A stretch of DNA of 64,000 bases from the NCBI GenBank assembly GCA_965205865.1, contig CBDBHR010000029.1, forward strand, positions 576,001 through 640,000, given 5' to 3'. Origin of the DNA: a bacterium (GTDB taxonomy: Bacteria > SAR324 > NAC60-12). Below are positions 4,249-64,000 of this stretch, piece by piece (positions within the stretch are counted from its first letter, which is position 1; every line of letters begins with the position of its first letter). Both the position numbers and the translations under genes were made by a program. The notes beneath the pieces were generated by a model, which did not search any database, was not told where the DNA came from, and saw only the letters and a list, made by a program, of their open reading frames with translations.

Positions 4249-4276
4249 TATCTTTGTTTTCCGAAAAGCACTCAAT

Positions 4277-11231: not shown

Positions 11232-11909
11232 AGAAAGGGGGTCAGGCCTTTGATTAGGTGATTAACCTGAGTTCGAGATAAGAATTTAATAAATTCAATA
11301 TGTTATGGAATCTTCATATCTTAGAGAAACCTTGATAGGGGTCAGGAAGGCATTAGCCTCCCTGCCCTCCGAACCGTGCGTGCGGTTCTCCCGCACACGG
11401 CTCTCCAGTCGTTGGTTTCCTCATCGGGATTGGCTCGCTACCCATCGGGCTTCTTTCATGGTGAAAAGTCCGAGTTGCGCAAAGAAGAGATCGCCTTTGA
11501 CTCCGTTACCCAGAGCCGCCAACATACGTTCGATCCATATCGTTGTTTCCACCCAACTCCAATGAGGAGAGAAAGGGGGTCAGGCCTTTGATTAGGTGAT
11601 TAACCTGAGTTCGAGATAAGAATTTAATAAATTCAATATGTTATGGAATCTTCATATCTTAGAGAAACCTTGATAGGGGTCAGGAAGGCATTAGCCTCCC
11701 TGCCCTCCGAACCGTGCGTGCGGTTCTCCCGCACACGGCTCTCCAGTCGTTGGTTTCCTCATCGGGATTGGCTCGCTACCCATCGGGCTTCTTTCATGGT
11801 GAAAAGTCCGAGTTGCGCAAAGAAGAGATCGCCTTTGACTCCGTTACCCAGAGCCGCCAACATACGTTCGATCCATATCGTTGTTTCCACCCAACTCCAA
11901 TGAGGAGAG
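11232..11909. repeat. Direct tandem duplication with a 338-bp unit (REP motif + MITE left end + intron 3' end)
   Basis: 11232-11571 matches 11570-11909. The ORF track shows the same 86-aa ORF twice, 338 bp apart. Confidence 0.95.
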
Positions 11910-32128: not shown

Positions 32129-32272
32129 TCTTATGCTCCTGAGGTGAGGGAGTGAAAAAAATTTTCACTCCCTCGCTGACATATTCGTAGGGGATAGTCG
32201 TACCTGCCTTTAAAATCTTACTGCTTCTCCAATGCATGATAATTTGAAAAATTCACTGACAAAAAAGTGATT

Positions 32273-32490: not shown

Positions 32491-32492
32491 GA

Positions 32493-32987
32493 TTATAGAT
32501 TCTGGATAATCAGTGAGGATATATATTGAGGAGAAAAATCCTTTGTTTCAACAATCTGATCAGCCTGTTCATATAAAGGTGCGCGTTGTAGAAGCAACAT
32601 ATGAATTCGCTCCTCAGGGTTCTCGGTTTGCAGCAAAGGTCGGTGAAGTGTACTTTTGAGCCGTAGTTTGATGTCTTCAATAGACGTTTTTATATAAATG
32701 ATCGTTCCTATTCTTTTCATCACATCAAAATTACCTTCCGACACCACAACACCGCCTCCTGTTGCAATAACCGTATTTTGCGCCAACAAGAGTCTATTGA
32801 GCAGTTTAGTCTCCAAATGCCGAAAATATTCTTCCCCTTGATGAGAAAAAATTTCAGAAATACTGCAATTTTGATCACTTTCAATTTGCTCATCCATATC
32901 GAGGAAATGGTATCCAAGACGGTTGGCCAATTTACGACCAATTGTCGTCTTTCCTCCTCCCATCATGCCGATCAGTATCAGATTCAT
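32493..32987 (-). CDS. aroK: Shikimate kinase
   Basis: GMMGGGKTTIG, GEEYFR, ATGGG and RPLL motifs. Confidence 0.95.
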   Translation of the reverse strand: MNLILIGMMGGGKTTIGRKLANRLGYHFLDMDEQIESDQNCSISEIFSHQGEEYFRHLETKLLNRLLLAQNTVIATGGGVVVSEGNFDVMKRIGTIIYIKTSIEDIKLRLKSTLHRPLLQTENPEERIHMLLLQRAPLYEQADQIVETKDFSPQYISSLIIQNL

Positions 32988-41276: not shown

Positions 41277-42972
41277 CCTAAATCCTGCAATTGAATATTT
41301 TGATTGAGTTTCCCCCCACTCTTTGAGAGGTTTTTTTAAAAAAAAGGATTTGAGAGTTGAATTTCCATCAGTCCTTGCTCATAAAGGTTTTTCCGCCCTC
41401 CATTAGATCGTCATATTTTGTGATGATCTGATACCCGCTTTCGCGGGCACAAGATTCAAGACGTACTTCTCCCTGGATTTGGGAATCTACATCTCAGCAA
41501 AATGTATCCACTGGAGTGAAACAAAGGTTCCAGGTCTCTCCAACAGCGACCCATGCATCCCATTGAGCATTGTAAAGTGTTCTTTCCGGAACTCTCAGTT
41601 TTTGTTGACGAGCGCCACTCGTCCATTTTCCTGCCATTCGGACAAGATAGGTGCGCATGGTGGCCGGTTCCCAACGGCGCAGTATTGCGTTACCACTACA
41701 AAGGGCCATCCAGCGCAGCGTGTTGTAAGCGAGTATCGCGCATTGGAACAAGGCACTGTTGGCCCAAAAATCGTCGGTTTTAATCTGAGCCAGCGCAGTT
41801 TGATTTTTTGCTTCCTCAATCCATGTCTCAGCGACCGCCCTTTGGCCATACTCTTTGTGAGCCTGCCAGGGAGTGAGCGCGTCAGTGAGAACATAACAAA
41901 AATAATCGTACTCCTTCATCTCAAAGAGGGTGGCCATCCCTTTGAGTTCCTCCTCTTTCTCCCTGCGTACGGCCATGAATTTTCTTGACCTCCTCCAAGT
42001 TTCACATTGGTGGGAAAACTCACACCCTTCCCAAGCGGGCTGCCCCTTCACTTTTTGCCATTTTTGGGTTTCCAACAACGAGACAAGCCCCTTGAGTTTG
42101 ACCTTGATCAGATAGCCATGGCCTCGTTCTTCGAGGAAATCCAGCAAATCCCCCACAAAAAAACCACTGTCTCCACGAAACAGAGTGCGAGTCCGATTTG
42201 GAAGGTGAGCGAGAAGTTGCCGCATGAATTCAACGACTCCATTGCTGGTATAGGCACTCCCATCACGAAGCCAACCCTGAAGAATCTCCTTTGTCTCTGC
42301 GCAAAATGCCAGCAGAGGATGATACGAAGCTGCACCGCGTTTGTGGGGATTATATCCGACAGACACTCCTTGCTGCTTGCCGTAGGCCGTTTTCACAGTG
42401 GAGTCCACGTCAATCACAAGACAGTGTAACACCCCAACGATGCTTGTCCCACTTCGAAGCGCCTTACGCCAGATACCGGCTCGAATCCGATGGTTCAAGC
42501 TCTCCATCTCATTGATGTTTTTCTGTGTGAAAGTACGCAGTATCCGGCCGAATGTGGTTTCATCCGGAATCCTCAGCCAACCGGCCACACGACTCAAAAC
42601 ACGGTCGTTCCAAACTGTCACAATCGAACGAATCGAACGGGCGCCACCAACAATGCCGACCACCGACAAAATGACCATGTCCACCGCGTCATAAAGACCC
42701 GTGGCGCCACGCCGATGATCTACGGTCTGCTCTGTCTTTGAAACAATCCCTTCTTTGTGAAAAAATTTGACAACCGGAATCAAGCCTGCTTGCGCGGTCA
42801 GGTCTCTGCCTCCCTGGCTGATATGGATGTTTTTTGCTGTCGTTCTTGCCGATCTTGCGCTACGTTTGTTTTTCATGGTAATGGTGATCTCTTAAAATGT
42901 TGATTCTGGTGTTAACTATTTGAGTATATTACCATTTCCATGTTTGATTGTCATCTAATTGCAGGATTTAGG
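41277..42972 (-). mobile_element. IS1380-family insertion sequence (complete)
   Basis: TIR cctaaatcctgcaatt at both ends with a 5-bp TSD tcaaa. Confidence 0.93.
41494..42876 (-). CDS. IS1380 transposase
   Basis: LTAQAGL, IDVDST, YHPLLAF, RGDSGF and RAVAETWIEEAK motifs. Confidence 0.95.
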   Translation of the reverse strand: MKNKRSARSARTTAKNIHISQGGRDLTAQAGLIPVVKFFHKEGIVSKTEQTVDHRRGATGLYDAVDMVILSVVGIVGGARSIRSIVTVWNDRVLSRVAGWLRIPDETTFGRILRTFTQKNINEMESLNHRIRAGIWRKALRSGTSIVGVLHCLVIDVDSTVKTAYGKQQGVSVGYNPHKRGAASYHPLLAFCAETKEILQGWLRDGSAYTSNGVVEFMRQLLAHLPNRTRTLFRGDSGFFVGDLLDFLEERGHGYLIKVKLKGLVSLLETQKWQKVKGQPAWEGCEFSHQCETWRRSRKFMAVRREKEEELKGMATLFEMKEYDYFCYVLTDALTPWQAHKEYGQRAVAETWIEEAKNQTALAQIKTDDFWANSALFQCAILAYNTLRWMALCSGNAILRRWEPATMRTYLVRMAGKWTSGARQQKLRVPERTLYNAQWDAWVAVGETWNLCFTPVDTFC

Positions 42973-43703
42973 TCAAAATCTTACAGATTGGGTCTGGCCA
43001 TATAAAGAATGGCCCGACGAGGTCAAGCGTGAGTATGAGTATCGCCCGGCAGATGCAGAAGCGTTGCTTGATGCGGCCGGATATCCACGAGGCGCCGACG
43101 GCTATCGATTCAAGCTCACGCTGAGCAATCTTGTGAGGTTTGAATCGACCTATGCAGAAATCGTCGTAGAGTTCTTCCGCGCCATTGGCGTTGATGCCGA
43201 GATCGTTGTTACTCCTGAAGCTGAGCAGTCCGCTGCCTTTGGAGCGGACACGCACGAGTGGCACATAATGCGTGGTCAGGGTATGGGGGAACGTCGCCCA
43301 GGGCTCTGGTTTGCAGGGCTCGCCACCCAAAACGTGCGTGACGAGAGCTACAGCAAGGTGAAGGACTCGCGTATCGAAACCTTTTATAATAACGCCAACA
43401 ATACTACGGACCTTGAGGAGTATTTTAGCAACATTCGAAAGATCGATGAGATCTTTGTAAGGGAGCACTTTGGCCTGGTTAGACCTGTAAGCCCCTTATT
43501 TCAGGTGGCCAAGCCGTGGGTGCAGGGTTGGCACGGTGAATGGGGTATGGGATACGCCGAGCGTCATACCCACTTTTCTCGCCTCTGGATTGATAGTGCG
43601 CTGAAGAAAGAAATGATGGGAAACTAGCAGTACACTCCTGTGGAGCCGGGGGGTGGTCGCTTGTGAGCGCGCTTCCCAGCTCCCATACTTGGGGCGCAAA
43701 CAC

Positions 43704-44723
43704 GTGAGTACCTATATCATCAGGCGGTTGTTGCTCATAATCCCCACGCTGTTCATACTGACCATCATAGTCTTTGCTACGGTCCGCTTTATCCCCGGCG
43801 ATACAATAGACGCAATGGTGGCTCAGATGGAAGCTGAGGGCAATCCGGGTTCCGTGAGTGCCAGAGACCGCGAAACTCTTGAGCGTATTATGGGACTGGA
43901 CGTGCCTGTCTACGTGCAGTATGGACGCTGGATCGGAGTGTTGTCGACCCCTGACTGGCGGCTTACCGGTGAGTCCCACTTTAGAGGTCTCCTCCAGGGC
44001 ACCTTTGGCCACTCACTGTATGGCGGAGGCACTACGGTAGAGGAGAGCATAATCGGGAGATTGCCAGTCACCATTGAGCTTGGTGTTCTGGCAATTGTAA
44101 TTGGTCTCGTCATCGCCCTGCCCGTCGGCGTCTACTCGGCGATCCGCCAGGATACCACCGCCGACTACGTCGGGCGAACCGTCGCCGTCATCGGCTTGGC
44201 AACGCCGAACTTCTGGCTGGCAACTATGGTCCTGCTCTACCCGGCACTCTGGTGGGGCTGGTCGCCACCGGTAGAGCTGATCCCCTTCAAGGAAGACCCG
44301 CTGGGAAATCTCGGGATGTTCATCATTCCGGCCGTGATTCTGGGGACGGCCCTTGCTGCCAGCACCATGAGGATGACGCGCACCATGATGCTGGAGGTGC
44401 TCAGGCAAGACTATATCAGGACGGCTTGGTCGAAGGGGCTCAGGGAGCGGATAGTTATAATAAGACACGCCATCAAGAATGCCCTCATCCCGGTAGTGAC
44501 GCTCGTCGGCCTGCAGCTCCCCATCCTGATCGGGGGCTCCGTTATCTTGGAGCAAATATTCGCTCTGCCGGGGATAGGCCGTCTGTTTGTGGTTGCGCTC
44601 GATGCAAGAGACTACCCGATCGTCTCCGCAATAAACCTGATTTTTGCTACCGCGGTTTTGGGGATCAATCTCATGATCGACCTGATTTACTCTTACTTGG
44701 ACCCCAGGATTCGGTATGAATGA
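43704..44723 (+). CDS. Peptide ABC permease (OppB/DppB family)
   Basis: YIIRRLL and RTMMLEVLRQDYIRTAWSKGL motifs. Confidence 0.92.
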   Translation: MSTYIIRRLLLIIPTLFILTIIVFATVRFIPGDTIDAMVAQMEAEGNPGSVSARDRETLERIMGLDVPVYVQYGRWIGVLSTPDWRLTGESHFRGLLQGTFGHSLYGGGTTVEESIIGRLPVTIELGVLAIVIGLVIALPVGVYSAIRQDTTADYVGRTVAVIGLATPNFWLATMVLLYPALWWGWSPPVELIPFKEDPLGNLGMFIIPAVILGTALAASTMRMTRTMMLEVLRQDYIRTAWSKGLRERIVIIRHAIKNALIPVVTLVGLQLPILIGGSVILEQIFALPGIGRLFVVALDARDYPIVSAINLIFATAVLGINLMIDLIYSYLDPRIRYE

Positions 44724-45672
44724 GACACCATCCCCTATCCGTGAGCCCAAACGACGGGGCCGGTTTGCTGATTTTTGGATCAGGCTTTTCAAGGAGAAGC
44801 CTCTTGGCACTGCCTGCGGGGTGATCATCTTGCTCTTGATTTTGGTGGCGATCTTTGCCGATGCGCTGGCGCCCTATTCCTTTAGGGAAATGCACCTGAT
44901 GGACAGGCTTACAGGCCCATCATCCCAATATCTGCTGGGGACCGACCAGATGGGACGAGACTTGTTCAGCCGCCTGATCTTCGGGGCGCATCTCTCCGTC
45001 TTTGTCGGTCTGGCCGCCACCATGCTCAATGTCGTCATCGCTGTCCTCATCGGTGGCATTTCAGGATTCATCGGGGGTAAACTGGATCTGGCGGTGCAGC
45101 GCTTTGTTGATGCCTGGATGGCTTTTCCGGGACTGTTGCTCTTGCTGACCGTCATGTCCATTGTGGGAAGGGATCTCTTCCAGATCATCGTGGTGCTGGG
45201 GATCGCCGGAGGCATCAGCGGCTCGAGAGTCATCAGAAGCGCCGTGATCGCTATCAAAGAGAATGACTATTTTCTGGCAGCCCAGGCCGTGGGCACCCCC
45301 ACGAGCAGAATCCTGAACCACCATGTGCTGCCCAATATTATGGCACCCGTCATCATTGTCTTCTCCATTAACATCGGGGGGGTGATTATGTCTTTGGCTG
45401 CTCTGGGCTTCCTCGGCTACGGTCTGCCACCCACCATTCCTGACTGGGGCGGCATGCTCAGCCGGGAAGGGCGCCGGTACATGGAACAGGCCCCCTGGCT
45501 GGCGCTCTGGCCGGGGCTGTGCCTGACGATTGTCGTCTACTCTTTCAACATGTTCGGCGATGCGGTGCGGGACCTGCTCGATCCCCGACTGCGGGGCGGG
45601 CAGGGCAGCTACGGCGCCGCAAAGAAACGCAAACGAGGCCTCCTCGCCAGATTGATCAACCCCTTCTCTTAG
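44716..45672 (+). CDS. Peptide ABC permease (OppC/DppC family)
   Basis: LGTDQMGRD, HVLPN and GDAVRDLLDPR motifs. Confidence 0.92.
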   Translation: MNETPSPIREPKRRGRFADFWIRLFKEKPLGTACGVIILLLILVAIFADALAPYSFREMHLMDRLTGPSSQYLLGTDQMGRDLFSRLIFGAHLSVFVGLAATMLNVVIAVLIGGISGFIGGKLDLAVQRFVDAWMAFPGLLLLLTVMSIVGRDLFQIIVVLGIAGGISGSRVIRSAVIAIKENDYFLAAQAVGTPTSRILNHHVLPNIMAPVIIVFSINIGGVIMSLAALGFLGYGLPPTIPDWGGMLSREGRRYMEQAPWLALWPGLCLTIVVYSFNMFGDAVRDLLDPRLRGGQGSYGAAKKRKRGLLARLINPFS

Positions 45673-47964: not shown

Positions 47965-48063
47965 GAAAAGGTGTCAGGCCTTTGATTATTTGATTAGAAA
48001 GTGATTAGGAATGAGTCCAGTTTTTTTGCCCCCTTTTCATTTAATCAAAGGCCTGACCCTTTC
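47965..48063. repeat. REPIN-like element: inverted pair of GG(T/G)GTCAGGCCTTTGATTA motifs
   Basis: aaaggtgtcaggcctttgatta ... taatcaaaggcctgaccctttc. Confidence 0.8.
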
Positions 48064-48589: not shown

Positions 48590-49477
48590 GAACCTGTTTG
48601 AAAGTCATTTAATTCTCTTTAACATCAAGCAAATCATAGCGACATAGATCATGTTTTCAGAGTTTTTTGTTTTTCTTTCATAATCGATGTTGAGTCTTCG
48701 ATACCATCCAAACCAGGAAAAGGTTCTTTCGACGATCCACCTTTTCGGTAGGACCTGAAAGCCCGTTCCTTGGAGGTTTAGAGTGATCTCAAGTTCACAT
48801 TGAAATCGATTCCATAACCATTGGGCTAATTCCCCTCGATAACCTCCGTCGGCCCAAATCATCTGAATCGAAAAGAACCAGCTAAACATCGATTCCAAAA
48901 GATCGTAAGCACTTTTGGAATCGGAGGCATTGGCATCAGTGACTTTAACCATGAGAGGAATTCCCGAGATATCGACAGCTACATGCCTTTTATGCCCTTT
49001 GATTCGTTTATTTCCATCAAAACCTCGACTATCAGCCAGTTCCGTGGTTTTGACGGATTGACTATCAATCATTGCAGCACTGGGTTCGGGAGCTCTGCCC
49101 ATTTCTATTCGGGTTTGCCGATGGAGAAACTGGTGAATCAGGAACCAAGTGTAGTTCTTGCACCATTTATTGTAGTGGTAATAAACACTTTGCCAAGGAG
49201 GAAAATCTTTGGGAAGCATTCTCCATTGACAACCCGTGGTCACTACATACAAAATGGCGTTTATGATAACTCGTAGTTCCCATTTACGAAGGTGGGCTCC
49301 ACGAGTTGAAAGTTCGGGAAGGTACTCTTGAAGTCTTTCCCATTGTTTATCACTGACATCACTGTTATAACCTGAACGTTCCATGTTCACTCCTTGTTAT
49401 TAAGGTTTCATTTTTCTCAAAATGAATGTGACATGGAACACTTCCAATAGGAAGCTCAACTTATTTCAAACAGGTTC
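48590..49477 (-). mobile_element. IS5-family (IS1031-like) element, transposase 48605-49390
   Basis: TIR gaacctgtttgaaa with TSD tta. IDSQSVK, WADGGY and KRWIVERTFSW motifs. Confidence 0.93.
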
Positions 49478-49648: not shown

Positions 49649-50638
49649 ATGCCCGATCCCTCTCAAGATAAACTGCACAAGCAACATGATAAATTATTCA
49701 AAACAGTTTTTTCTGATCCAAAGGAGGCGTCCAGTTTTTTTAAGAGTTATTTGCCTACATCTTTAGTGGATCAAATCGACTGGACCTCTCTCCACCTAAC
49801 CGATAAGGAATATGTGGATGAAGCCTTTCAGGCAACTGAGTCGGACTTGCTGTATCAAGCACAACGGCAGGGTAGCAACCAGAGGATCATGATCTACTTG
49901 CTCTTTGAGCATCAGTCTGAACCCAGTAAATGGATTCGATTCCGATTGCTGAAATATTGCTGTCGGATTTGGGATGATTCGTTCAAGGTTTTTGCTGAGC
50001 AACAAAAGCTCAAGCCCATCTTTCCCATTGTGTTTTATCAAGGGGAGCGGACTTGGAATTTTTCCACAGAATTCCAGGAACTTATTGAGACCGAGGGCTT
50101 GGATCGGGAGTATCTTCCCCGATTTAGCCATTTTTTGGTCGATCAATCCGGATTTGGACTCGAATCGTTCCAAGGGGAAGTCAAAGCAAGAATTGCGCAA
50201 CTCTTGCTATCTCAAGCGTTTCATGGTCAAATACAAAAAGGATTAGAAATGCTGATCCGTCTGTTGGAAGAAGTGGAGAAAACCGGAGGAATTGATTATA
50301 TTCAAGTCTTTCTGCGTTATTTTTGGCACATTCAAGAGGAGGTGTCCCCTGAAACATTAGCGCAAGCTATTGAAGAATACTCGGACTCTCAACATTTAGG
50401 AGAACAAACGATGTCGATTGCAGAACAGTTGATTGCTCAAGGCGAAAAAAAAGGAATTCAGGAAGGAATCCAAACAGGAATTCAAAAAGGGTTGGATCAA
50501 GGCGAGTTGGTGGGTGAAATTCGATTCGCCCAAAAAATGTTAAAACAACCCCAATCTCCCAAAGAAGAACTCTTTCAAAAAACAGAGGAAGCGTTAAAAA
50601 ACCTGCTTGAACAATTAGAAAAACAGCTGCCCGAATAA
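49649..50638 (+). CDS. Rpn/YhgA-family PD-(D/E)XK nuclease
   Basis: HDKLFK, SDLLY, LFEHQS and PIVFYQG motifs, with C-terminal MSIAEQL..EG repeats. Confidence 0.9.
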   Translation: MPDPSQDKLHKQHDKLFKTVFSDPKEASSFFKSYLPTSLVDQIDWTSLHLTDKEYVDEAFQATESDLLYQAQRQGSNQRIMIYLLFEHQSEPSKWIRFRLLKYCCRIWDDSFKVFAEQQKLKPIFPIVFYQGERTWNFSTEFQELIETEGLDREYLPRFSHFLVDQSGFGLESFQGEVKARIAQLLLSQAFHGQIQKGLEMLIRLLEEVEKTGGIDYIQVFLRYFWHIQEEVSPETLAQAIEEYSDSQHLGEQTMSIAEQLIAQGEKKGIQEGIQTGIQKGLDQGELVGEIRFAQKMLKQPQSPKEELFQKTEEALKNLLEQLEKQLPE

Positions 50639-51015: not shown

Positions 51016-52615
51016 GTCATCGTAAAGAACTGACTTATAGTGGTTTCCAGCCACCTTTCGTCATTCCTCCGGTACAGATCCGGACGTGCGCTGCTAACGC
51101 ATCCGGCTCCTGCTTCGAGTCAGACGCTCAAACGTTGCCGTTTGGCGCACCCTGCTTAAACCGCTCTCTGATTTTACCGGCCTCTGAGTTCCGAACACAG
51201 GAGGGCAAGCAGAATTCCTCTCAGCCAAGTCCCTTTGCTCCACAGGCTCCGTTGATTTCCTTTGCATTATTACTCTCTACAAATGATCTCATTGTTCGCC
51301 GCTTCATGCCGGGTAGAAATACGGCGCGCGCATGTTTAGGTCAACGACTTCCAATGTATCCCCCGTTTCCGGTTTCGTGGCAAAAGGGCGTCAGACCCTG
51401 CATCACGTTTCCGCAAGCCCCCCTCTCATCCCGGACGGTCGGATTTCCCGAGTCCGGTTGGCAGCAACAGCGTTTCCCCAGAAACCCTTCCCACCCAATC
51501 CGAAGCTTAAGCACTCGCCTGCATTCACCCCTGGAGTGAGTGATTTGATCTCCAGCTCGACATTCTTTGTGGTGACACTCTTGACCGACACAAGTTCGGC
51601 AGTGGTTCATGAAATGCCCGCCATTTACCGAGAGCCCCTTTGCCTTTTAGAGGTGTTACCTCCAAAAGGGAGATGTCCAAGCATCCCCTCGACCAGCGTT
51701 ACCCGGTCTTCATCGCTCATACGGACTCATGCGCCAGACCAAAATCCTCCTGCCGATTTCGGTGTTACCCTATACGGTAGGTCCTTGCAGGTTATTGCGA
51801 GTCCCTGCTGGAAGTTGGCCCTTCCCGACGTTATCTCTGTGGATCTTTCCCTGGATGCTTGGATCCATACTCCGGCTCCCTCCAAGGTGCCTGTTCCCAT
51901 TACTTCCCTTGGAACTTCGGCCTTCCCCGAGTAGCGAGCGGGTCGGCGGTTGGGCAACACACCGTCAAGCCAATTCACGACGGAAGTCTCTTTCGGAGCT
52001 GCAATCATTCACTAATGTTCAGGCCTCCAGGTTTGCTCGCCACCCTGTTGGCTCCCACTATGGACTCTCGTCCAAAGCAGACGGTGACTTTTACTTCCGG
52101 GCAGAACGCAAAGCAGTTACCTGCTAAGCGCACCGGATATGCTAGTCGCCCGAATGGGAAACTGACGACAGAGAGACTTTCACTCTCCAAAATCCACAGC
52201 CTTGTCGGCTGCTCACGCTACTACGAACTTGTCCGACTTCCTGAAGACGTAGATATCGGGGTTATTTATTAATTTTCCCGATCCGACTACCAATAGAATG
52301 TTGACAGTCGTCTTCAGGATCTCCCAGGTTCCGGTCAAGAAACTTCCACACATGCACCGGGTCTTTGACTCCGCCAGGCTCAGCCGAGACTCACGCTAAC
52401 GCCTTCGGTTGATATTGCCTTCCCCACCAAACCACAAGGTCAGCGCCTGAAACTATGATTTCGGAGCTCAATACCGAGCCTATGTTCTCCCCTGTCAACG
52501 CTTAGCGCCTATCCTTGCGAATAACCACTCATGACTCGGGGACTCGGCGGGTCGTTACTGCCTTACCGAGTAAGAGACTTTCACTCTCTATTTCTTGCCA
52601 GCTTTCCTGGCGCAC
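51016..52615 (-). mobile_element. RT-deleted copy of the 55162-57118 group II intron, hosting a second intron
   Basis: Near-identical 5' (GTGCGCCAGG) and 3' (DV/DVI ...TGAC) RNA domains. About 1265 bp of the RT ORF is missing at ~51137. Confidence 0.92.
51308..52216 (-). mobile_element. Nested ORF-less group II intron (twintron inner element)
   Basis: 5' GTGAGCAGCCGACAAG, DV-like AACCGGACTCGGGAAATCCGACCGTCCGGGATGAGAGGGGGG and 3' ...CTACCCGGC. Interrupts the host at GTAGTAGC^ATGAAG. Confidence 0.85.
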
Positions 52616-52721
52616 GGCCTGACCCCCTTTTTTATCAGTGGCCTGATTGCACACTCGTTTATTCCGACACAAAAATTCGGCGGCCATTTCGGATAAAATG
52701 TTGTTGAACTGAGCCGAGGTG

Positions 52722-52997
52722 TTACAGAAAAATGAGTGTTTGCTCACTATAGTCTCTGAGAGCGCGCAATCGTCTTTCCCCGGCAATCAGCTCATAACGT
52801 CCCTGATGCCAACGGACCACAATCGACTCGATTAACCCGTCTTGTTCAATATTGGCTGCTAATTCTTTAAGCGTTTGTTCGTCAAAATATTCACGATACT
52901 GGAAAGGAGAGGGCGCAATCTCATCAACCGGCAAGTATTCTATTCGCTCAACTCCTCCCTGCTTCCGGACTGTCATACGAATTACTTTCTTTTCCAT
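52722..52997 (-). pseudogene. ParB N-terminal domain fragment
   Basis: LKELAANIEQDGLIE..YELIAGERRLRA. Truncated near the REP motif. Confidence 0.7.
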
Positions 52998-53197
52998 ACT
53001 CCTCCTTCCCCTTTCTCGATTCTGTCATTCCGCACAATTCCGCGGATTTACCGCCCTTTCAGGACCATTTCGCTCAGAGGAGGAAGGAAGAATCGATACT
53101 TTTTAGAGCTCGACGTCTTTTTGTTTTCTGGGAATGGTTCTTAACTCAATCCTGATCTGTACCGCAACTCTTTCAATGGAAGGATTCTTTTTTGTGT

Positions 53198-53323
53198 TGC
53201 GAACGCAGTGGTAACAAGCGCCCACTCAACAGGGATGAGTGAAAGAAATGATGTTGAATTACTTATCGAAAAAACCTTGGCGATAGCGTGGGGTTGGCGT
53301 CTTTGTTCAGCGCCTTGTTCGAC
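53198..53323 (-). other. attC-like site (126 bp) downstream of the TA module
   Basis: The minus strand reads GTCGAACAAGGCGCTGAACAAAGACGCC...GGGCGCTTGTTACCACTGCGTTCGCA. It abuts the toxin stop once IS5 is removed. Confidence 0.6.
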
Positions 53324-53326
53324 TTA

Positions 53327-54252
53327 GAACTTATCCTTTAATAACTTGAAAATTGGTATTTCCTGCATTATTTTTGTCATCATGTTCAACCATAAACGCA
53401 TGGAGGCTATATGGCAAAAGTACAGTCGTGGGAAGTATCTGATTCATTTTGGGCCAGAGTGGAGCCACTGATACCAAAACCCAAACGTGACCCGAACAAG
53501 ACCTACAAGCGCAAACCCGGTGGTGGTAGAAAGCCAATGCCTGCGCGCCAAATTTTCGAGGGAATTGTATATGTTTTGCGCACCGGTTGTCAATGGAGAG
53601 CCCTTCCCAAGGAAAAATATGGGAGTCCTAGTGCCATCCATGCTCATTTCATGCGTTGGAATGAAGCGGGTTTCTTTTTGTCGCTTTGGCAAGCCGGACT
53701 TGCCGAATATGATGAGATGGAAGGGATCTCCTGGAAATGGCAAAGCATAGACGGCACGACTGTCAAAGCCCCACTGGCTCAGGAAACCGTTGGTCGAAAC
53801 CCGACTGACAGGGGAAAAAAAAGGGAGCAAGCGTCATTTGCTGGTTGACGGCCGTGGTGTCCCGCTGTCCCTCGTCGTAACCGGGGCGAACCGGCATGAT
53901 GTGACACAGTTGGAATTGGTCTTGGAGGAAATCGTCATTGCGCGGCCTGAGGGCATTGAACAACATCTGTGCGCAGACAAAGGCTACCACGGTGAGCCAG
54001 CATCACAGATCATTCGATCCAATGATTATGTGCCACATGTGAAAAAACGGGGTGAAGAGATTCAAGAAAAAAAAGCAAATCCCCAATACAGACCCAGAAG
54101 ATGGGTCGTCGAGGTGAGCCATTCATGGTTCAACAGATTTCGCAAGATAATGGTCCGATTCGAAAAATATAATCAAACTTATCTCGCACTGCTTCAATTG
54201 GCTGCAGCTATCATAACTTACAGGAAAGTTAATGTTATTTAAGGATAAGTTC
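53327..54252 (+). mobile_element. IS5-family (IS427-like) element with split orfA (53411-53848)/orfB (to 54242)
   Basis: TIR gaacttatcctt with TSD tta. An A8 slippery run lies in the ORF overlap. IDGT, ADKGY and RWVVE motifs. Confidence 0.92.
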
Positions 54253-54543
54253 TTATATTCTGTGTTTCCAGTATTCCGGATCTCGATGCAGATGCATCAC
54301 AGCTACAATGAAAATTTCTTTGTCTTCTTCCGCATATAGGATTTCGTATGGAAACCTTCTGATCAGAGATCTTCTGATTTCACCTACTATCATTGGCCAC
54401 GCCTTGGGGTGTGTCAGAGTTCTTTCAATCGTTATTTAGACCTCTACCGCGAAGTCATATCCCAAGCCTGCTTCCTTCTCTTCATAGTATTCAATAGCCT
54501 GATCAAATTCTGATTCAGCTTCCGGATGAAACAAATATTTCAT
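54253..54543 (-). pseudogene. RelE/ParE-family toxin with an in-frame TAA at codon 36
   Basis: MKYLFHPEAESEFDQAIEYY...AVEV*ITIER...RFPYEILY..AVMHLHRDPEYW. Confidence 0.85.
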
Positions 54544-54764
54544 AAGGAAAATCTCTTCCAAATTTTTTTAAATACTTCATCTCCTGGAATAGCCGCCACC
54601 TCACCCGACCTCAACTCTTTCAGTCTCCGCTTTGCAACGGCTGCCCATTTTTGATCAATATCTGATTCAGGGGGGTTAAGGCTTTTCAGTAGCGAATCAA
54701 CCACGATCACCCTCTCTTCAACTGGAAGAGAAATCGCCTCCGCTATTAGGTCTTTGGTCTTCAT
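54540..54764 (-). CDS. Addiction module antitoxin (TIGR02574-type)
   Basis: LPVEER..VDSLLKSL..W...AKRR..ELRSGEV. Overlaps the toxin start. Confidence 0.85.
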   Translation of the reverse strand: MKTKDLIAEAISLPVEERVIVVDSLLKSLNPPESDIDQKWAAVAKRRLKELRSGEVAAIPGDEVFKKIWKRFSL

Positions 54765-54852
54765 CGTATCTCCAATATAATTTATGAAAATGTGAATGAG
54801 CATTGAGAAAGCAAGAATTTGTTGTTTCCAACTAGTCTCCTTAAGCATTGTA

Positions 54853-55146
54853 CCTAAATCCTGCAATTAGATGACAATCAAACATGGAAATGGTAATATA
54901 CTCAAATAGTTAACAGCAGAATCAACATTTTAAGAGATCACCATTTCCATGAAAAACAAAGGTAGCACAAGATCGGCAAGAACGACAGCAAAAAACATCC
55001 ATATCAGCCAGGGAGGCAGAGACCTGACCGCGCAAGCAGGCTTGATTCCGGTTGTCAAATTTTTCACAAAGAAGGGATTGTTTCAAAGACAGAGCAGACC
55101 GTAGATCATCAGCGTGGCGCCACGGGTCTTTATGACGCGCTGGACA
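54853..55146 (+). mobile_element. Truncated IS1380 left end
   Basis: Matches the start of the complete copy and stops abruptly at the AAAAGGGGTCAGGCC motif. Confidence 0.9.
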
Positions 55147-55161
55147 AAAAGGGGTCAGGCC

Positions 55162-57118
55162 GTGCGCCAGGAAAGCTGGCAAGAAATAGAGAGTGAAAGT
55201 CTCTTACTCGGTAAGGCAGTAACGACCCGCCGAGTCCCCGAGTCATGAGTGGTTATTCGCAAGGATAGGCGCTAAGCGTTGACAGGGGAGAACACAGGCT
55301 CGGTATTGAGCTCCGAAATCATAGTTTCAGGCGCTGACCTTGTGGTCTGGTGGGGAAGGCAATATCAACCGAAGGCGTTAGCGTGAGTCTCGGCTGAGCC
55401 TGGCGGAGTCGAAGACCCGGTGCATGTGTGGAAGTTTCTTGACCGGAACCTGGGAGATCCTGAAGACGACTGTCAACATTCTATTGGTAGTCGGGTCGGG
55501 AAAATTAATAAATAACCCCGACATCGACGTTTTCAGGAAGTCGGACAAGTTCGTAGTAGCGATGAAGCGGCGAACAATGAGATCATTTGTAGAGAGTAAC
55601 AATGCAAAGGAAATCAACGGAGCCTGTGGAGCAAAGGGACTTGGCTGAGAGGAATTCTGCTTGCCCTCCTGTGTTCGGAACTCAGAGGCCGGTAAAATCA
55701 GAGAGCGGTTTAAGCAGGGTGCGCCAAAGGGCGAAGAGGAACCCCCATCTTCAATTCAACAATCTCTTTCATCACATCAACCCTGACTTACTGCGGAGAG
55801 CTTACTTTGATCTCAATCGCAACTCAGCGGCGGGAGTGGACGAGGAGACCTGGAATGAGTATGGCATAAATCTCCTGGAGCGGATTAACGATCTGCACGG
55901 GAGGATCCACCAAGAACGTTATCGTCCTCACCCTTCTCTGCGAGTGTGGGTTCCTAAACCGGATGGCCGTCAAAGGCCAATCGGAATAGCCGCACTTGAA
56001 GACAAGATCGTACAACAAGCCCTTGTTTGGACGTTGGAATCGATCTATGAGGAGGATTTCCTTGGGTTTAGTTACGGGTTCCGACCCGGACGAAGCCAAC
56101 ATCAAGCCTTAGACGCTTTGTATGTGGCCATTACCCAACGGAAAGTGAGCTACATCTTAGATGCGGATATTCAAGGATTTTTCGACACAATTCAGCATGA
56201 TTGGATGCTGAAATTTATCGAGCATCGAATCTCCGACAAAAGGATTCTGCGTTTAGCAGAGAAAACGTTGCGCGCCGGAGTCATCGAAGAGGGGAAGTGG
56301 TCTGAAACGGTGGTCGGAACACCACAAGGTTCGGTAGTGTCTCCAATCTATTCAAATATCTACCTGCACTATGTTTTAGATCTATGGGTTAATCAATGGA
56401 GAAGGCGGGAAGCTCGGGGGGAAGTTTACATCATTCGCTATGCGGATGATTTCGTCGTGGGTTTTCAATATTCTGAAGATGGCCAGAAATTTAATCGCCA
56501 ACTAAGAGAACGCCTCTCTCAATTTGGACTGACTTTACATGAAGAGAAAACACGCCTCATCGAGTTCGGGCGATTTGCCGCCGATAACCGGGAAAAACAA
56601 GGTCTGGGAAAACCGGAAAGTTTCGACTTTTCAGGATTCACTCATGTCTGTGACACTCGGATAAAGGATGGAAAATTCAAGCTCACCCGTCTCACCATTT
56701 CCAAAAGGTTGCGAAAGAAGCTCAAAGAGATCAAACTTGAAGCGAAACGCAAACGTCATGAAAATGCGCATGAACAAGGAAAATGGCTCAGGTCTGTTTT
56801 AAACGGTCTGTACAACTACTATGGAGTCCCCGGCAACCGGAGTTCCTTGAATGCTTTTCGCACGGAAATCCATCGGACGTGGTTCAAATCACTAAGACGG
56901 AGGAGTCACAAAGCAAAGAGGATGAACTGGGAACGCTTCAAAGTACTGGTCAAACTACACATTCCTTCTGTAAGGACAACCCACCCGTATCCGAATCAAC
57001 GTTTGAGCGTCTGACTCGAAGCAGGAGCCGGATGCGTTAGCAGCGCACGTCCGGATTTGTACCGGAGGAATGACGAAAGGTGGCTGGAAACCACTATAAG
57101 TCAGTTCTTTACGGTGAC
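55162..57118 (+). mobile_element. Full-length group II intron (bacterial class E-like)
   Basis: 5' GTGCG, DV GAGCCGGATGCGTTAGCAGCGCACGTCCGG, and DVI with bulged A ending GGTGAC. Boundaries confirmed by the second copy. Confidence 0.93.
55602..57014 (+). CDS. ltrA: Group II intron reverse transcriptase/maturase (no endonuclease domain)
   Basis: PKPDGRQRPIGI, SYGFRPGR, GTPQG, NIYLHY and RYADD motifs. Confidence 0.95.
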   Translation: MQRKSTEPVEQRDLAERNSACPPVFGTQRPVKSESGLSRVRQRAKRNPHLQFNNLFHHINPDLLRRAYFDLNRNSAAGVDEETWNEYGINLLERINDLHGRIHQERYRPHPSLRVWVPKPDGRQRPIGIAALEDKIVQQALVWTLESIYEEDFLGFSYGFRPGRSQHQALDALYVAITQRKVSYILDADIQGFFDTIQHDWMLKFIEHRISDKRILRLAEKTLRAGVIEEGKWSETVVGTPQGSVVSPIYSNIYLHYVLDLWVNQWRRREARGEVYIIRYADDFVVGFQYSEDGQKFNRQLRERLSQFGLTLHEEKTRLIEFGRFAADNREKQGLGKPESFDFSGFTHVCDTRIKDGKFKLTRLTISKRLRKKLKEIKLEAKRKRHENAHEQGKWLRSVLNGLYNYYGVPGNRSSLNAFRTEIHRTWFKSLRRRSHKAKRMNWERFKVLVKLHIPSVRTTHPYPNQRLSV

Positions 57119-57129
57119 CCTTTGGTGCG

Positions 57130-57255
57130 CTTACCAATTGAAAGGGTTGATCAATCAGGCTAGGAGGCCTCGTTTGCGTTTCCTCTTTGTGGCACCATAA
57201 CTTCCATGAGCACCTCGCAGCTGCGGATCGAGCAAGTCTCTCACCACATCACCGA
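57130..57255 (-). pseudogene. 3'-terminal fragment of a third OppC paralogue
   Basis: GDVVRDLLDPQLRG...KRKRGLL..INPFNW*, similar to the ends at 45580-45672 and 60497-60620. Confidence 0.7.
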
Positions 57256-57475
57256 ACAGGTTGAGAGTAGACGACAATCGTCAGGAAAAGCCCCGGCCAG
57301 AGCGCCAGCCAAAATTTCACGTAAGTTATTTTCTGATTGACATTGAACCAACATACCGGTAATTAGGAAGGATCTTTCCCGAATGCCATTCACGGGATCA
57401 AGGGTATCGGGAAGATTGACACACACGATTATTTCACGCAGATACTGCGTAACTTTAAACTAAAGGAGTCCAACA

Positions 57476-58594: not shown

Positions 58595-59111
58595 TACACT
58601 GTCAGCTTGAAATTTACGGGTATGGTAGGGCGGGACTGCTGCTCCAGCGTACCGGTTCCCGCCAAAAAACGCCGGAGTTGGTACACCGCGCGGTAGTCCG
58701 ACCGGTACGCCGAGCGGCTACCATAAACAATGATGGGAATGCGCTAATTTACCTACCTTCTCAGAACCCCATCTCTTTCTTCAGTTCCTGATCGACCCAA
58801 ATTAAGGCGAGCCAGGGTTTGTTCACAGTTATGCCGAGATCAGTTTCCCCGTTGTGGCCCTTGATCCACGGCTGGGTGGCACCGAACGGGGGTGCCAGTG
58901 GCCCCCTGATCACCCACAGCATCTCGGCGACGCGCAGGTCGGCCTTCCGCACCCACTCCTTCTGTTCCTCCAGCGTGGTAGCGGCCAGCGCGTTCTCGAA
59001 GGAAAAGGGACAGGCCCCTTTATTCTCTTTTTCTCTAATCAAATGAAGGAATCCCTTGCAAATAATTAGTAACTGTCCCCGGATTTTGGTAGCGAAAGGG
59101 ACAAAAACGAC

Positions 59112-60496: not shown

Positions 60497-61465
60497 TTAC
60501 CAATTGAAAGGGGAGAGGAGCCGGGCCAGGAATCCTCGTTTGCGTTTCACCGCTGCACCATAACCGCCCTGCCCACCCCTCAGCCTGGGATCGAGCAAGT
60601 CTCTCAATGCGTCGCCAAACATGTTGATGCTGTAGATCACGATACTAAGGGCAAGACCAGGCCACAGGGCTAGCATCGGAGCTATCTCCATGTATTTACG
60701 CCCTTCTCCACTGAGCATACTACCCCAACTAGCAATCTCCGGAGGCAGACCATATCCCAGGAAGCCGAGGGCGGCTTCAGTCAGGATTATACTTCCTTTG
60801 GTTGTCGTATAAATCACAATAATGGGAGCCATAATATTAGGCATGATATGACGGACAAGTGTTCTTACGGTGCTGCTTCCGACAGCCTCCGCCGCCGACA
60901 CATACACATTCTCTTTGATACCGATGACGGCACTTTTCACTACCCTTGAGCTGTAAATGCCACTTAACACACCCAAAACAACTATTACCTGCATTAAGCC
61001 CTGACCCACCAGGGACATTACCGTTATCAGAAGGAGCAGAGCCGGGAAGACCACCACGGCATCAACAAACCTCTGTACTACCACGTCCATCTTACCGCCG
61101 AAGAATCCTGTAGGAACGCCTATCAATACAGCGATAACTAAATGGAGAGTAGTTGCCGTCAATCCGACAACTACCGAAATACGAGCGCCGTAGATAAGAC
61201 GGCTCAAGATATCTCTTCCTAACGCATCTGTACCGAGCCAGTACTCAGCTGACGCTCCCTCCAGCATGACCCTGAGGTTGATTTCATTCATGCCATAGGG
61301 TGCCAGGACGTCAGCAAAGATTGCAGTGAGAAGCAAGAGCAAAATGACAACCCCACACGCGGCCCCCAGTGGTTTCTCCTTTACCAACCTTAGCAGGAAA
61401 TCAACCAGCGGGGAATGCCTCTTTGCTTCGACTGTTTCTACACCTGCGCCGTCCACGCTACTCAT
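60497..61465 (-). CDS. Peptide ABC permease (OppC/DppC family)
   Basis: LGTDALGRD, HIMPN and GDALRDLLDPR motifs. Confidence 0.9.
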   Translation of the reverse strand: MSSVDGAGVETVEAKRHSPLVDFLLRLVKEKPLGAACGVVILLLLLTAIFADVLAPYGMNEINLRVMLEGASAEYWLGTDALGRDILSRLIYGARISVVVGLTATTLHLVIAVLIGVPTGFFGGKMDVVVQRFVDAVVVFPALLLLITVMSLVGQGLMQVIVVLGVLSGIYSSRVVKSAVIGIKENVYVSAAEAVGSSTVRTLVRHIMPNIMAPIIVIYTTTKGSIILTEAALGFLGYGLPPEIASWGSMLSGEGRKYMEIAPMLALWPGLALSIVIYSINMFGDALRDLLDPRLRGGQGGYGAAVKRKRGFLARLLSPFNW

Positions 61466-61478
61466 GCCTTCACTCCCT

Positions 61479-62440
61479 TCAACTATACCGGATCCTCGGT
61501 TCCAGCCAACCATAGCTGATGTCAATTAGTAGGTTAGATCCTACTACAAGCACGGCGACAAACAGGTTTATCCCGGAAACAATAGGGTAGTCCCTCCGGT
61601 TTAAGGAATGCAACATGAGACTGCCCAGTCCGGGCAGGACAAATATCTGCTCAATGATGACCGCACCACCAATCAGATAGGGCAAATGAGTTCCTATCAG
61701 GGTGACTAAGGGAATCAGGGCATTCTTAAGGGCATGCCGAACGATGACCACCCTCTCCTTGAGTCCCTTTGACCAGGCGGTCCTTATATAGTCCTGCCGC
61801 AGAACCTCCAGCATCATCGTGCGCGTCATTCTCATGATCCCCCCACAAAGAAACATAGCCAGAATAGAGGCAGGAATTATGAACATGCCAAGGTTGCCGA
61901 GCGGATCCTCGCTAAACGGAATTAGCTTCATTGATGGCGACCACCCCCAGTAAAGTGAGGGGTAGAGCATTACCATTGTCCCAATCCAGAAACTGGGTAG
62001 AGAGAGAGAAAAACGATAGCAATACTTCGCCCGATGTAGTCGCCGATGGTATCCTGCCGTATTGATGAGTAGATTCCTGTCGGTATGCCTACCAGCAACG
62101 CTAAAATCAAAGCCAGGAAGCTGATCTCAAAGGTTACCCATACTCTTCCGAAGATTTTTCCGGCCACATCCTTACCACTACGCAAAGACTCCCCGAGACT
62201 GCCATGCAAAATGATGTCTCCTATCCAGCGTCGGTACTGCACGTGTATAGGTACATTCAGCCCAAGTTTTTCCTCAATTGCCTCGCGGTCAACCTTGTTG
62301 CCAGAAAAAGTTCCCATCTCACCTAGAATTACGTCTACCACGTCACCCGGGATGAAACGTATGGTAAGAAAGACGAGAATAGTTACCAATAATACTGTTG
62401 GTATAAGTAACAGTGATCTTCTGATTATGTAAGCAGTCAT
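61479..62440 (-). pseudogene. Peptide ABC permease (OppB/DppB), frameshifted at a (CT)5 tract
   Basis: Two ORFs (61970-62440 and 61479-61976) join if one CT unit at 61999-62008 is removed. Confidence 0.85.
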
Positions 62441-62778
62441 ATTATTGAGCCTAACAAGTATTTCAAGTGACTATCCATCGCTTTTCGCTCCAGTCAATGG
62501 CTTTGGCATGGGTAGATACGTTAGCAGGGCCAAGCTCAGCGGTTTCGCCACCGACGTCCACTTGGTTGAAGGGAAACCAATAGCCAAACGAGTTAGAATC
62601 CCTGGTATCACCCCCAAATATCAAACTCAAGCGTACTTGAGAACCCCTCTGTCACTGAGGTCAGTGGCAGGCACTGTGGATGGTATCGGATATATCACAC
62701 AGGCGACGGGCATTACAAGCCCATCCAGCGATGGGCTTGTAATTTCATTCTCCTTGCAATGACACGAGAAGGCGGCTT

Positions 62779-63095
62779 CTAACGGCCCTTCTCTTCCTTC
62801 ACGTCTTGATAAACCCAGGTAAACCGCAATGGCGACGCAGGGCTATCAAGAAGGTCAATATTACTTTCTCCAAAGTAACCACCCACCCACGGCTGCCAGA
62901 AGGTATACTCGAAACCGGTAGGACCCCATACATTGAGGTGCTGGCCAATGAGGTACATATCGGCCTCTATAGCCCCATCCTTTAACTCTTCAATGGTAGT
63001 CGCCGCATTCACCTTCTCATCAATGAGGGCGTCATAGACTGGGTCTTTGAAACCGTGCCAGTTCCACGGGCCGTCTGTTACATAAAGTAATACTA
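62779..63095 (-). pseudogene. C-terminal part of a peptide ABC substrate-binding protein cut by IS1380
   Basis: WQPWVGGYFGE...WVYQDVKEEKGR, paralogous to the end of 42959-43627. Confidence 0.75.
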
Positions 63096-64000
63096 CCTAA
63101 ATCCTGCAATTAGATGACAATCAAACATGGAAATGGTAATATACTCAAATAGTTAACACCAGAATCAACATTTTAAGAGATCACCATTACCATGAAAAAC
63201 AAAGGTAGCGCAAGATCGGCAAGAACGACAGCAAAAAACATCCATATCAGCCAGGGAGGCAGAGACCTGACCGCGCAAGCAGGCTTGATTCCGGTTGTCA
63301 AATTTTTTCACAAAGAAGGGATTGTTTCAAAGACAGAGCAGACCGTAGATCATCGGCGTGGCGCCACGGGTCTTTATGACGCGGTGGACATGGTCATTTT
63401 GTCGGTGGTCGGCATTGTTGGTGGCGCCCGTTCGATTCGTTCGATTGTGACAGTTTGGAACGACCGTGTTTTGAGTCGTGTGGCCGGTTGGCTGAGGATT
63501 CCGGATGAAACCACATTCGGCCGGATACTGCGTACTTTCACACAGAAAAACATCAATGAGATGGAGAGCTTGAACCATCGGATTCGAGCCGGTATCTGGC
63601 GTAAGGCGCTTCGAAGTGGGACAAGCATCGTTGGGGTGTTACACTGTCTTGTGATTGACGTGGACTCCACTGTGAAAACGGCCTACGGCAAGCAGCAAGG
63701 AGTGTCTGTCGGATATAATCCCCACAAACGCGGTGCAGCTTCGTATCATCCTCTGCTGGCATTTTGCGCAGAGACAAAGGAGATTCTTCAGGGTTGGCTT
63801 CGTGATGGGAGTGCCTATACCAGCAATGGAGTCGTTGAATTCATGCGGCAACTTCTCGCTCACCTTCCAAATCGGACTCGCACTCTGTTTCGTGGAGACA
63901 GTGGTTTTTTTGTGGGGGATTTGCTGGATTTCCTCGAAGAACGAGGCCATGGCTATCTGATCAAGGTCAAACTCAAGGGGCTTGTCTCGTTGTTGGAAAC
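63096..64000 (+). mobile_element. IS1380 copy (runs off the window), transposase from 63192
   Basis: Near-identical to 41277-42972 in reverse orientation. Confidence 0.93.

Follow-up and report, generated by a model that had tools for sequence, protein, structure and literature searches.

Within 64,000 nucleotides (nt) of a SAR324 bacterium (GenBank assembly GCA_965205865.1, contig CBDBHR010000029.1, positions 576,001 to 640,000 of the forward strand), the whole of which we call the window, two inverted copies of one group II intron stand directly behind the same short 5′ exon motif. We consider it probable that this endonuclease-less, IIB-like bacterial intron retrohomes into a short repeated motif that is the head of a repeat resembling repetitive extragenic palindromes (REPs) or REPINs, the hairpin-forming REP doublets. 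The evidence comprises the flanks of the two copies, a covarying pairing between intron RNA and exon, an excess of empty target sites in the window, and the genomic surroundings of the motif in related introns.

Two inverted intron copies and their shared 5′ exon

Alignment and a repeat finder identify two copies of one intron, 97–99% identical, and together with Rfam they confirm the coordinates proposed by an earlier reading made from the DNA letters without database searches (the sequence-only reading). The intron ends (5′ at 55162 and 52615; 3′ at 57118 and 51016) were set by pairwise alignment and by the repeat finder, whose paired arms are 52216–52631/55146–55561 (98%), 51137–51307/55562–55732 (99%), and 51011–51137/56997–57123 (97%). 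Each copy matches RF02005 (group-II-D1D4-6; gathering score 49), with 167.8 bits at 55196–55418(+) and 167.9 bits at 52359–52581(−), and both matches show the domain I–IV structure of a ribozyme core, with 5′ GUGYG and 3′ AY ends that here read GUGCG and ...GAC.

The + copy is full length, and the score of its encoded reverse transcriptase (RT)/maturase in the NCBIfam model TIGR04416 (Table 1) lies above the cut-off of 300 bits. The sole Pfam match of this open reading frame (ORF) is RVT_1, at residues 117–347; since nothing but RVT_1 is matched, the Pfam scan found no endonuclease or HNH domain, as the sequence-only reading had held. Domain V folds into a 34-nt hairpin with a 2-nt bulge (the fold was computed on 57026–57059, one base off from 57025–57058), and domain VI (57060–57118) folds at −21 kcal/mol (z −4.1) with a bulged, unpaired A 7 nt from the 3′ end. 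RF00029, the domain V/VI model, gives 28.8 and 25.6 bits, both under its gathering score of 40. The − copy lacks the equivalent of 55733–56996, i.e., nearly the whole RT ORF, and is interrupted by a 908-nt insert. Because of the ORF loss and the insert, the − copy is either dead or, at best, mobile only where RT is provided in trans. The insert, probably what is left of a nested intron in decay, has a group-II-like domain I and a possible exon-binding site 1 (EBS1), GCUACU, that matches the host sequence AGUAGC; its RF02003 score of 33.2 bits falls below the gathering score of 49, and no domain V was found in it.

Both copies are preceded by AAAAGGGGTCAGGCC, and both junctions read ...AAAA(G)GGGGTCAGGCC/GTGCG, the slash marking the point of insertion here and below. 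In the alignment, the 5′ flanks of the two copies diverge beyond about −17 and the 3′ flanks from +1. The shared 5′ exon between unrelated distal flanks, already described in the sequence-only reading, is therefore borne out, and this arrangement is the pattern of retromobility and not of segmental duplication. With identity ending at the last intron base on one side and upstream of about −17 on the other, the results support the proposal that one group II intron without an endonuclease retro-inserted twice, independently, and each time behind the same short motif.

The IS4-like fragment on the 5′ side of the + copy stops exactly where the motif starts, and the OppC-like permease pseudogene on its 3′ side has its stop codon 12 nt from the insertion site, on the opposite strand. 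When the exons of the + copy are rejoined they form the hairpin AAAGGGG-TCAGG-CCCCTTT (−13.8 kcal/mol, z −2.0), which on the permease strand has the look of a terminator, a stem with a T-run behind it. For the − copy, rejoining gives −6.3 kcal/mol (z −0.4) and no convincing hairpin, so the restored hairpin reported earlier holds for the + copy and fails for the − copy. Judged by predicted folding, a hairpin spanning the insertion point is not supported as a general property of the sites.

EBS1 pairing and the conserved upstream block

The Rfam consensus structure places GU-GGUCUG-G in the loop that closes one of the intron's domain I hairpins. The sequence GGUCUG, assigned as EBS1, is complementary to the last six exon bases, CAGGCC (intron-binding site 1, IBS1), with one G-U pair, and the − copy, with GGUUUG at 52428–52433, keeps the pairing. 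For comparison we used 37 loci encoding relatives of the RT (47–86% identity; L numbers below), among which the intron 5′ end was defined in 28 copies and domain I then aligned. Every alignment column of the first 330 intron nt was scanned blind against exon positions −1 to −19. The scan singled out the EBS1 loop alone, with a complementarity of 0.95–0.96 for exon −1 to −6 and at most 0.83 for the rest; the two best 5-nt runs were complementary in 100/105 and 101/105 cells. Over 6 nt and 21 non-redundant relatives, which between them have 13 different EBS1 and 17 different IBS1 sequences, 121 of the 126 cells are paired, 113 of them as Watson-Crick pairs. Permuting exons among introns gave a mean of 73.4 and a maximum of 93 paired cells, and none of 2000 permutations reached 121. 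Since 121/126 cells are paired and no permutation comes as high, covariation among relatives shows that CAGGCC is read by the predicted EBS1-IBS1 pairing, in agreement with the earlier suggestion that TCAGGCC is read by base pairing.

The other half of that suggestion, an EBS2 pairing with AAGGGG, gained no support. No EBS2 was found for the AAAAGGGG part of the exon, the best 5-nt run for exon −6 to −14 being 0.62 complementary. A search for 6-nt complements intron by intron did return a recurrent candidate region near nt 273–288, and the candidate GUUUCUU (intron nt 273–279) occurs at the same place in six of eight clade members; it is ambiguous, as the fold pairs the same segment with nt 20–26 as a basal helix. 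For EBS3 against the +1 base there is too little variation in the relatives to tell. Ectopic insertions with imperfect IBS1 occur in two relatives (L010 and L011), and in Thiodiazotropha only the copy beside a Y1-like transposase gene (L009) matches EBS1 at 6/6 positions, the other two copies being mismatched.

Directly before the variable IBS1, the 5′ exons of the relatives carry an A-rich run followed by GG(G)AC, for example AAAAAAAGGGA-CAGGCA, AAAAAAGGA-CACCCA, GGGGGA-CAGGCG, and AATGGGGA-CACCTT, to which GGGGT-CAGGCC is the counterpart in the window. An RT tree places the window intron in a clade of eight rows from Delta- and Gammaproteobacteria with 100/100 support. For this tree, a lone stop codon was translated as X, which concerned three RTs, and loci with several stops were excluded. 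The block is present in all seven clade rows with a known 5′ exon, and a Planctomycete intron outside the clade has it as well. Conservation of this block in the target with no RNA complement suggests, from sequence comparison, that it is read by the intron protein; more broadly, a conserved block that no EBS2 matches argues for a recognition step based on protein-DNA contact or on structure.

Together, these observations are consistent with the following course of insertion. The EBS1 loop GGUCUG pairs with CAGGCC, and the A-rich GG(G)[A/T]C block directly upstream, conserved in the targets of the clade despite hosts of different phyla, would be recognized without a detectable EBS2, the intron protein being the likeliest reader. 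Without an endonuclease, the intron would probably reverse splice into DNA that is transiently single stranded at replication forks and take a nascent strand as primer, by analogy with RmInt1-type introns, for which this has been shown.

The target motif as a dispersed repeat

The motif with up to two mismatches occurs five times in the window against 0.21 expected, and 0 of 100 shuffles reach five. Under a looser rule (CAGGCC preceded by a G-rich and then an A-rich block), there are seven sites in the 64 kb against 0.23 expected, with a maximum of two in 200 shuffles, so that the motif is a short extragenic repeat in excess, as a REP would be. Two of the seven are occupied (55156 and 52621) and five are empty (11243, 11581, 47975, 48055(−), and 59011). 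The count of two occupied and five empty sites in the sequence-only reading is thus reproduced, and all five unoccupied relatives that it listed exist, with the correction that those at 11233 and 11571 are a single site duplicated by a 338-bp tandem unit, as the repeat finder shows. Four of the empty sites have a longer common motif, GGGTCAGGCCTTTGATTA, i.e., GGGTCAGGCC/TTTGATTA, and the site at 59003 is very similar to what the + copy's exons give when rejoined. The empty sites 59003, 11233, and 47965 can each fold into a small hairpin that spans the insertion point. The 99-bp doublet at 47965–48063 carries two inverted arms, GGTGTCAGGCC/TTTGATTA and GGGTCAGGCC/TTTGATTA, with GGAT on either side, and folds to −40.8 kcal/mol (z −7.55); inverted doublets folding into a long hairpin, a further REP-like trait, are also found in L006, L028, and L004.

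Motifs of this kind are scattered through the relatives' loci as inverted repeats, which in some of them flank Y1 transposase genes resembling REP-associated tyrosine transposases (RAYTs), and the earlier guess that the motif is REP-like thereby gains support. Three Planctomycete loci (L006, L007, and L022) hold four occupied and six empty homologous sites of the sequence GGAAGGGGGACAGGCG/CGCTTAT..., plus one probable chance match. In L022, an empty (~4003–4514) and a filled (~5441–7895) copy of a single element of ~510 bp, with the motif in inverted orientation at its ends, agree at nearly all aligned positions, up to the outer edge. The Y1 identity of the coding remnant in this element is drawn from its full-length homologues, since 120 of 120 full-length relatives among the matches listed carry PF01797 (Y1_Tnp, IS200-like). 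An inverted repeat pair around a Y1 gene, as in the L022 element, is what we take to be the REP-RAYT arrangement, and a cognate Y1 gene flanked by the inverted motif is seen both there and in L015/L014 (inverted motif with 2 mismatches). Among the 23 distinct intron copies with at least 600 nt of downstream sequence, Y1-like genes or remnants begin 26–97 nt after the intron in six, namely in L001 (the closest full relative, 81% identical), L009, L015, L022, L032, and L033; the L033 ORF passes the Pfam cut-off, and the only other Y1-like match in the 37 loci is the empty element of L022.

Occupied arms of inverted repeats are found in L006 (twice), L022, and L028, whereas both arms of the doublet in the window are empty. 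In L006, 60 nt separate each of two intron copies from an inverted motif downstream. In L028, the closest DNA relative, whose intron DNA is 88–95% identical and which has another family of MITEs (miniature transposable elements with inverted repeats) in common with the window, the intron 3′ end is followed by 42 nt and then the inverted GGGGTCAGGC. An Endozoicomonas locus has a 57-nt doublet with the motif in both arms. The window's exact 10-mer GGGTCAGGCC occurs at 6163–6172 of L007, 27 nt after a Planctomycete intron copy; this is probably a chance match, because there are only two such matches in the 37 loci.

In the reading that we prefer, the motif would be the head of a REP/REPIN-like repeat, represented in the window by both arms of the 99-bp doublet and by single copies, and in relatives by inverted motifs that flank Y1 (RAYT-like) transposase genes or form short doublets. 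The stock of the window is one autonomous copy, one dead copy, and five empty sites. Several results weigh against this reading. Classical REPs have a conserved GTAG-type head, which is absent here, the motif starting with GAAAGGGG. At both occupied sites of the window the TTTGATTA continuation seen at empty sites is missing, and the 400 nt downstream of each window copy contain no inverted partner (the best candidate has 5 mismatches in 14 positions). None of 59 scanned ORFs in the window matches PF01797, and tblastn for Y1-like sequences in the window gave no match at E ≤ 1e-3; a weak best Y1-like match, with an E of 1.8e-4, lies antisense within a beta-lactamase-family gene. Among relatives, 17 of the 23 copies have no Y1-like neighbor, the L022 coding remnant itself has no Pfam or NCBIfam match, the L015 ORF stays below the Pfam cut-off (19.8 versus 23), and the L009 ORF, with no Pfam match, rests on tblastn and on its likeness to L015. 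The test for a downstream inverted partner is clearly significant in one of 19 copies (L006) and borderline in L014 (p 0.035) and L004a (p 0.055), and most of the "empty" motifs of Psychrobium belong to an odd rearranged intron variant. Apart from these results, the alignment of 3′ exons across loci was uninformative, and plasmid-borne RT matches (52–55% identical) in Pseudomonas, Burkholderia, and Sinorhizobium have 5′ exons of another type, with no Y1 neighbor in the three examined.

Other explanations have to account for the same sites. Ordinary retrotransposition, in which the intron lands at any 6-nt IBS1 with a loosely preferred block upstream and the empty motifs are the end of an unrelated MITE that matches by chance, would fit the missing 3′ half and missing inverted partner at the occupied sites, the ectopic insertions in L010 and L011, and the site of the + copy, which lies antisense to a hairpin resembling the terminator of a gene, 12 nt beyond the stop codon of the OppC-like pseudogene and beside a truncated insertion sequence (IS). 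Against it stand seven sites where 0.23 are expected and a link with dispersed inverted repeats that recurs in the Planctomycete, Endozoicomonas, Psychrobium, and L028 loci, and we regard it as rather unlikely. That the motif instead travels with the intron, as a unit including ~15 nt of 5′ exon, or is left behind as the footprint of lost introns, so that the empty copies are products and not targets, seems to us quite improbable. The exact end of the IS4-like fragment at the start of the motif, the unrelated sequence on both outer sides of the two motif-bearing copies, and a locus (L004b) with the target motif on either side of an intron 5′ fragment all speak for it. To our knowledge, however, group II intron mobility carries no exon sequence along, footprints would not yield doublets or symmetric inverted pairs around Y1-like genes, and the covariation of EBS1 with the exon is as expected of a target.

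Two further possibilities concern structure and duplication. If a DNA hairpin or terminator were recognized in the manner of class C introns, rather than a sequence family, the stable hairpin across the rejoined + exons, its place just past a stop codon on the opposite strand, and the small hairpins possible at three empty sites would be explained, but the − copy exons form no convincing hairpin, the intron enters within the 3′ arm instead of behind the stem-loop, EBS1 has its full length of 6 nt and covaries, and the junctions of relatives (e.g., L006/L007 and L014/L015), judged by eye, mostly lack a hairpin spanning the site; we hold this to be highly improbable. A local inverted DNA duplication that produced both copies and carried the motif along is suggested by their proximity (2.5 kb apart), inverted orientation, and 98–99% identity. 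It would, however, require breakpoints that fall precisely on the 3′ splice site and on the edge of the recognized 5′ exon, one copy has since lost its ORF and gained the 908-nt insert, and the same flank pattern occurs at unlinked sites in relatives, all of which makes such an origin exceedingly improbable.

Homing into a REP/REPIN-like head, the reading preferred here, can be extended, tentatively, beyond this genome. A clade of endonuclease-less introns spread across several phyla might be specialized on the REP/REPIN heads of Y1 (RAYT-like) transposases, with the protein or an undetected RNA element reading the A-rich GGGAC and EBS1 retuned in each genome to the next six bases; we think this possible, though somewhat less likely than its negation. 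If true, it would constitute a fourth target specificity of bacterial group II introns, beside homing sites, terminators, and attC, and an instance of a selfish element that subsists on repeats belonging to a different one. A REP/REPIN-dwelling lineage would add an abundant, non-coding target that is renewed by another enzyme, which could explain how endonuclease-less introns persist without harm to the host. This bears on targetron design and on the reading of repeat-rich genomes, in which intron insertions and REP-type repeats jointly drive rearrangements.

Relation to known introns and other mobile elements in the window

The comparisons below draw on the cited passages of each paper. A 2015 review distinguishes homing sites, terminators, and attC as the three target specificities of group II introns in bacteria (PMC4424553). 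Every one of the seven copies of RmInt2, a class D intron without an endonuclease, resides in an ISRm17 inverted repeat, a targeting that doubles its sites, one per strand (PMC4615759, PMC5894124). The habit of entering IS inverted repeats is therefore already known, and the present intron would be a variant of it; the cross-phylum link of the clade with REP/RAYT-type repeats is what our results suggest as the part worth following. As far as these passages describe RmInt2, both introns lack an endonuclease and follow relaxed target rules upstream of IBS1, and the window intron, like RmInt2, would have its natural target within the terminal inverted repeat of another repeated mobile element; a target in an inverted repeat therefore gives two sites per element, on opposite strands. 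RmInt2 differs in having a working EBS2-IBS2 pairing, where no EBS2 was found in the window intron, and in targeting an autonomous IS in a single species, whereas the sites considered here are short non-coding doublets and the flanks of Y1/RAYT-like genes in several phyla. Unlike the case described for RmInt2, the window's own doublet is unoccupied in both arms.

Class C (IIC) introns insert after intrinsic terminators or into attC, just after the stem-loop, and lack part of the EBS1 motif and all of EBS2 (PMC4424553, PMC1702495). The window intron resembles them, as they appear in these passages, in having no endonuclease, apparently little or no EBS2, and targets that are abundant, non-coding, and partly palindromic; it differs in its covarying 6-nt EBS1, in inserting inside the motif, and in its RF02005 match with IIB-like features. 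Membership of class C was considered, and the 6-nt covarying EBS1, the insertion inside the 3′ arm, and the missing hairpin at the − copy speak against it.

A partial precedent for REP-type extragenic repeats as landing sites is in print. ISPpu9, ISPpu10, ISPa11, and IS1397 target REP sequences, and a group II intron of Pseudomonas putida KT2440 is REP associated in two of nine copies, or 22% (PMC1525189). The passage on the KT2440 intron gives this 22% association and no mechanism, whereas here a defined EBS1-IBS1 pairing and clade-wide recurrence are found. In the open-access literature (without supplements) on group II introns with REP, MITE, or RAYT, nothing closer than the KT2440 entry and RmInt2 was found.

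For IIE and IIF introns, EBS2-IBS2 is described as dispensable for splicing, and class E is defined by an endonuclease-less intron-encoded protein (IEP) and a ribozyme of 450–700 nt without the IEP (PMC3753933). The ribozyme of the + copy, 1957 nt minus a 1413-nt ORF, measures 544 nt, which together with the lack of an endonuclease agrees with both properties. The window intron is thus like IIE/IIF introns, as presented there, in its ORF-less length, its endonuclease-less protein, its IIB-like character, and the dominance of EBS1-IBS1, and differs in that IIE/IIF introns show an apparently covarying EBS2 and none was found here. Class E is further marked by a 5-nt domain V loop, an apparent EBS2-IBS2 pairing in domain Id, and an alpha′ located in a terminal loop of domain Id3. 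The domain V loop of the window intron reads UAGCA (5 nt) if a U-A pair is open, and RNAfold closes it to 3 nt. The intron is 52% identical to one on a Sinorhizobium meliloti plasmid, and an IS66-family element cuts that plasmid intron at its 5′ end; PMC5894124 refers to a class E intron that is disrupted and lies on a different strain's accessory plasmid. The literature naming RF02005 gives no class for the Rfam family. The class E label for the window intron is, on this circumstantial evidence, a lead only.

Table 1. Coordinates of the intron copies, their exons, and target-like sites in the window
Feature	Position	Strand	Evidence or remark
Full-length group II intron, 1957 nt	55162..57118	+	GUGCG start, GGUGAC end; RF02005, alignment with − copy
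Intron-encoded RT/maturase, 470 aa	55602..57014	+	NCBIfam TIGR04416, 339.8 bits; YADD present
Domain V (57025–57058) and domain VI	57025..57118	+	Folds; RF00029 match 57023–57118
EBS1 (GGUCUG), intron nt 183–188	55344..55349	+	Terminal loop of domain I hairpin, Rfam consensus structure
5′ exon motif of + copy (AAAAGGGGTCAGGCC), IBS1 = 55156–55161	55147..55161	+	
First ~300 nt of IS4-like element	54842..55146	+	Repeats; Pfam DDE_Tnp_1_4 of intact copies
3′ exon of + copy, the 3′ end of OppC-like permease pseudogene	57119..57311	−	Repeats; paralogue 60497–61522(−) by Pfam
Second intron copy, RT ORF deleted, interrupted by insert	51016..52615	−	RF02005, alignment, repeat finder
908-nt insert within − copy	51308..52215	−	RF02003, 33.2 bits, E 1.6e-5, at 52013–52189(−)
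5′ exon motif of − copy (AAAGGGGGTCAGGCC)	52616..52630	−	
99-bp inverted doublet, REPIN- or MITE-like	47965..48063		Both 22–24-nt arms are empty targets
Empty target GAAAGGGGGTCAGGCC/TTTGATTA	11233..11256	+	Abuts another MITE-like element
Empty target, same as 11233 site	11571..11594	+	Copied by 338-bp tandem duplication
Empty target-like site AAAAGGGACAGGCC/CCTTT	59003..59016	+	Between convergent genes, in a terminator-like hairpin

Another group II intron, one without an ORF, lies at 11673–12490(−) (RF00029, 54.3 bits). It is inserted directly behind a small hairpin of a MITE-like element of ~230 bp, of which 32267–32495 is an empty copy; the region 11232–11907 also belongs to this arrangement. 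The last ~235 nt of this intron, with ~100 nt of its 3′ exon, are tandemly duplicated as the 338-bp unit, whose boundary coincides with the outer edge of the AAAGGGGGTCAGGCC motif.

Intron structure varies among the relatives. Twelve loci (L005, L006, L007, L008, L012, L013, L017, L022, L024, L029, L031, and L039) have intron 5′ ends that read GAAAGCG, GAUAGCG, or GAGCG and not GUGCG; these noncanonical ends were placed by alignment to the window intron together with the exon motif. A Psychrobium variant found three times (L032 2742–2867 and 5837–5957; L037 2837–2960) consists of the motif, intron nt 1–80, and the inverted motif, followed almost directly by the RT ORF, with ~330 nt of domain I missing. 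At L004 10426–10740, a ~170-nt intron 5′ fragment gives way to tandem (GGTAATAGC)n repeats, then to a further target motif and an inverted doublet of 57 nt, and L001 4121–5500 is a ~1.38-kb insertion in domain I with a transposase-like ORF and the inverted ends CTAGTACAGC.../...GCTGTACTAG.

The region around the window introns is very rich in mobile DNA and includes a YhgA-like gene at 49649–50638. The IS4-like element (DDE_Tnp_1_4) of which a 5′ fragment flanks the + copy has two further copies, at 41497–42983(−) and 63095–64000(+), 100% identical over 906 nt. Other IS in the window are IS630-like (13428–14570), IS1595-like (37438–38364), and IS5-like (48605–49390 and 53326–54266, the latter frameshifted). 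Two diverged, paralogous pairs of Opp-type permease genes, at 43617–45669(+) and 60497–62470(−), are 70–83% identical in DNA in parts, and the permease remnant adjoining the + intron is a third, truncated copy.

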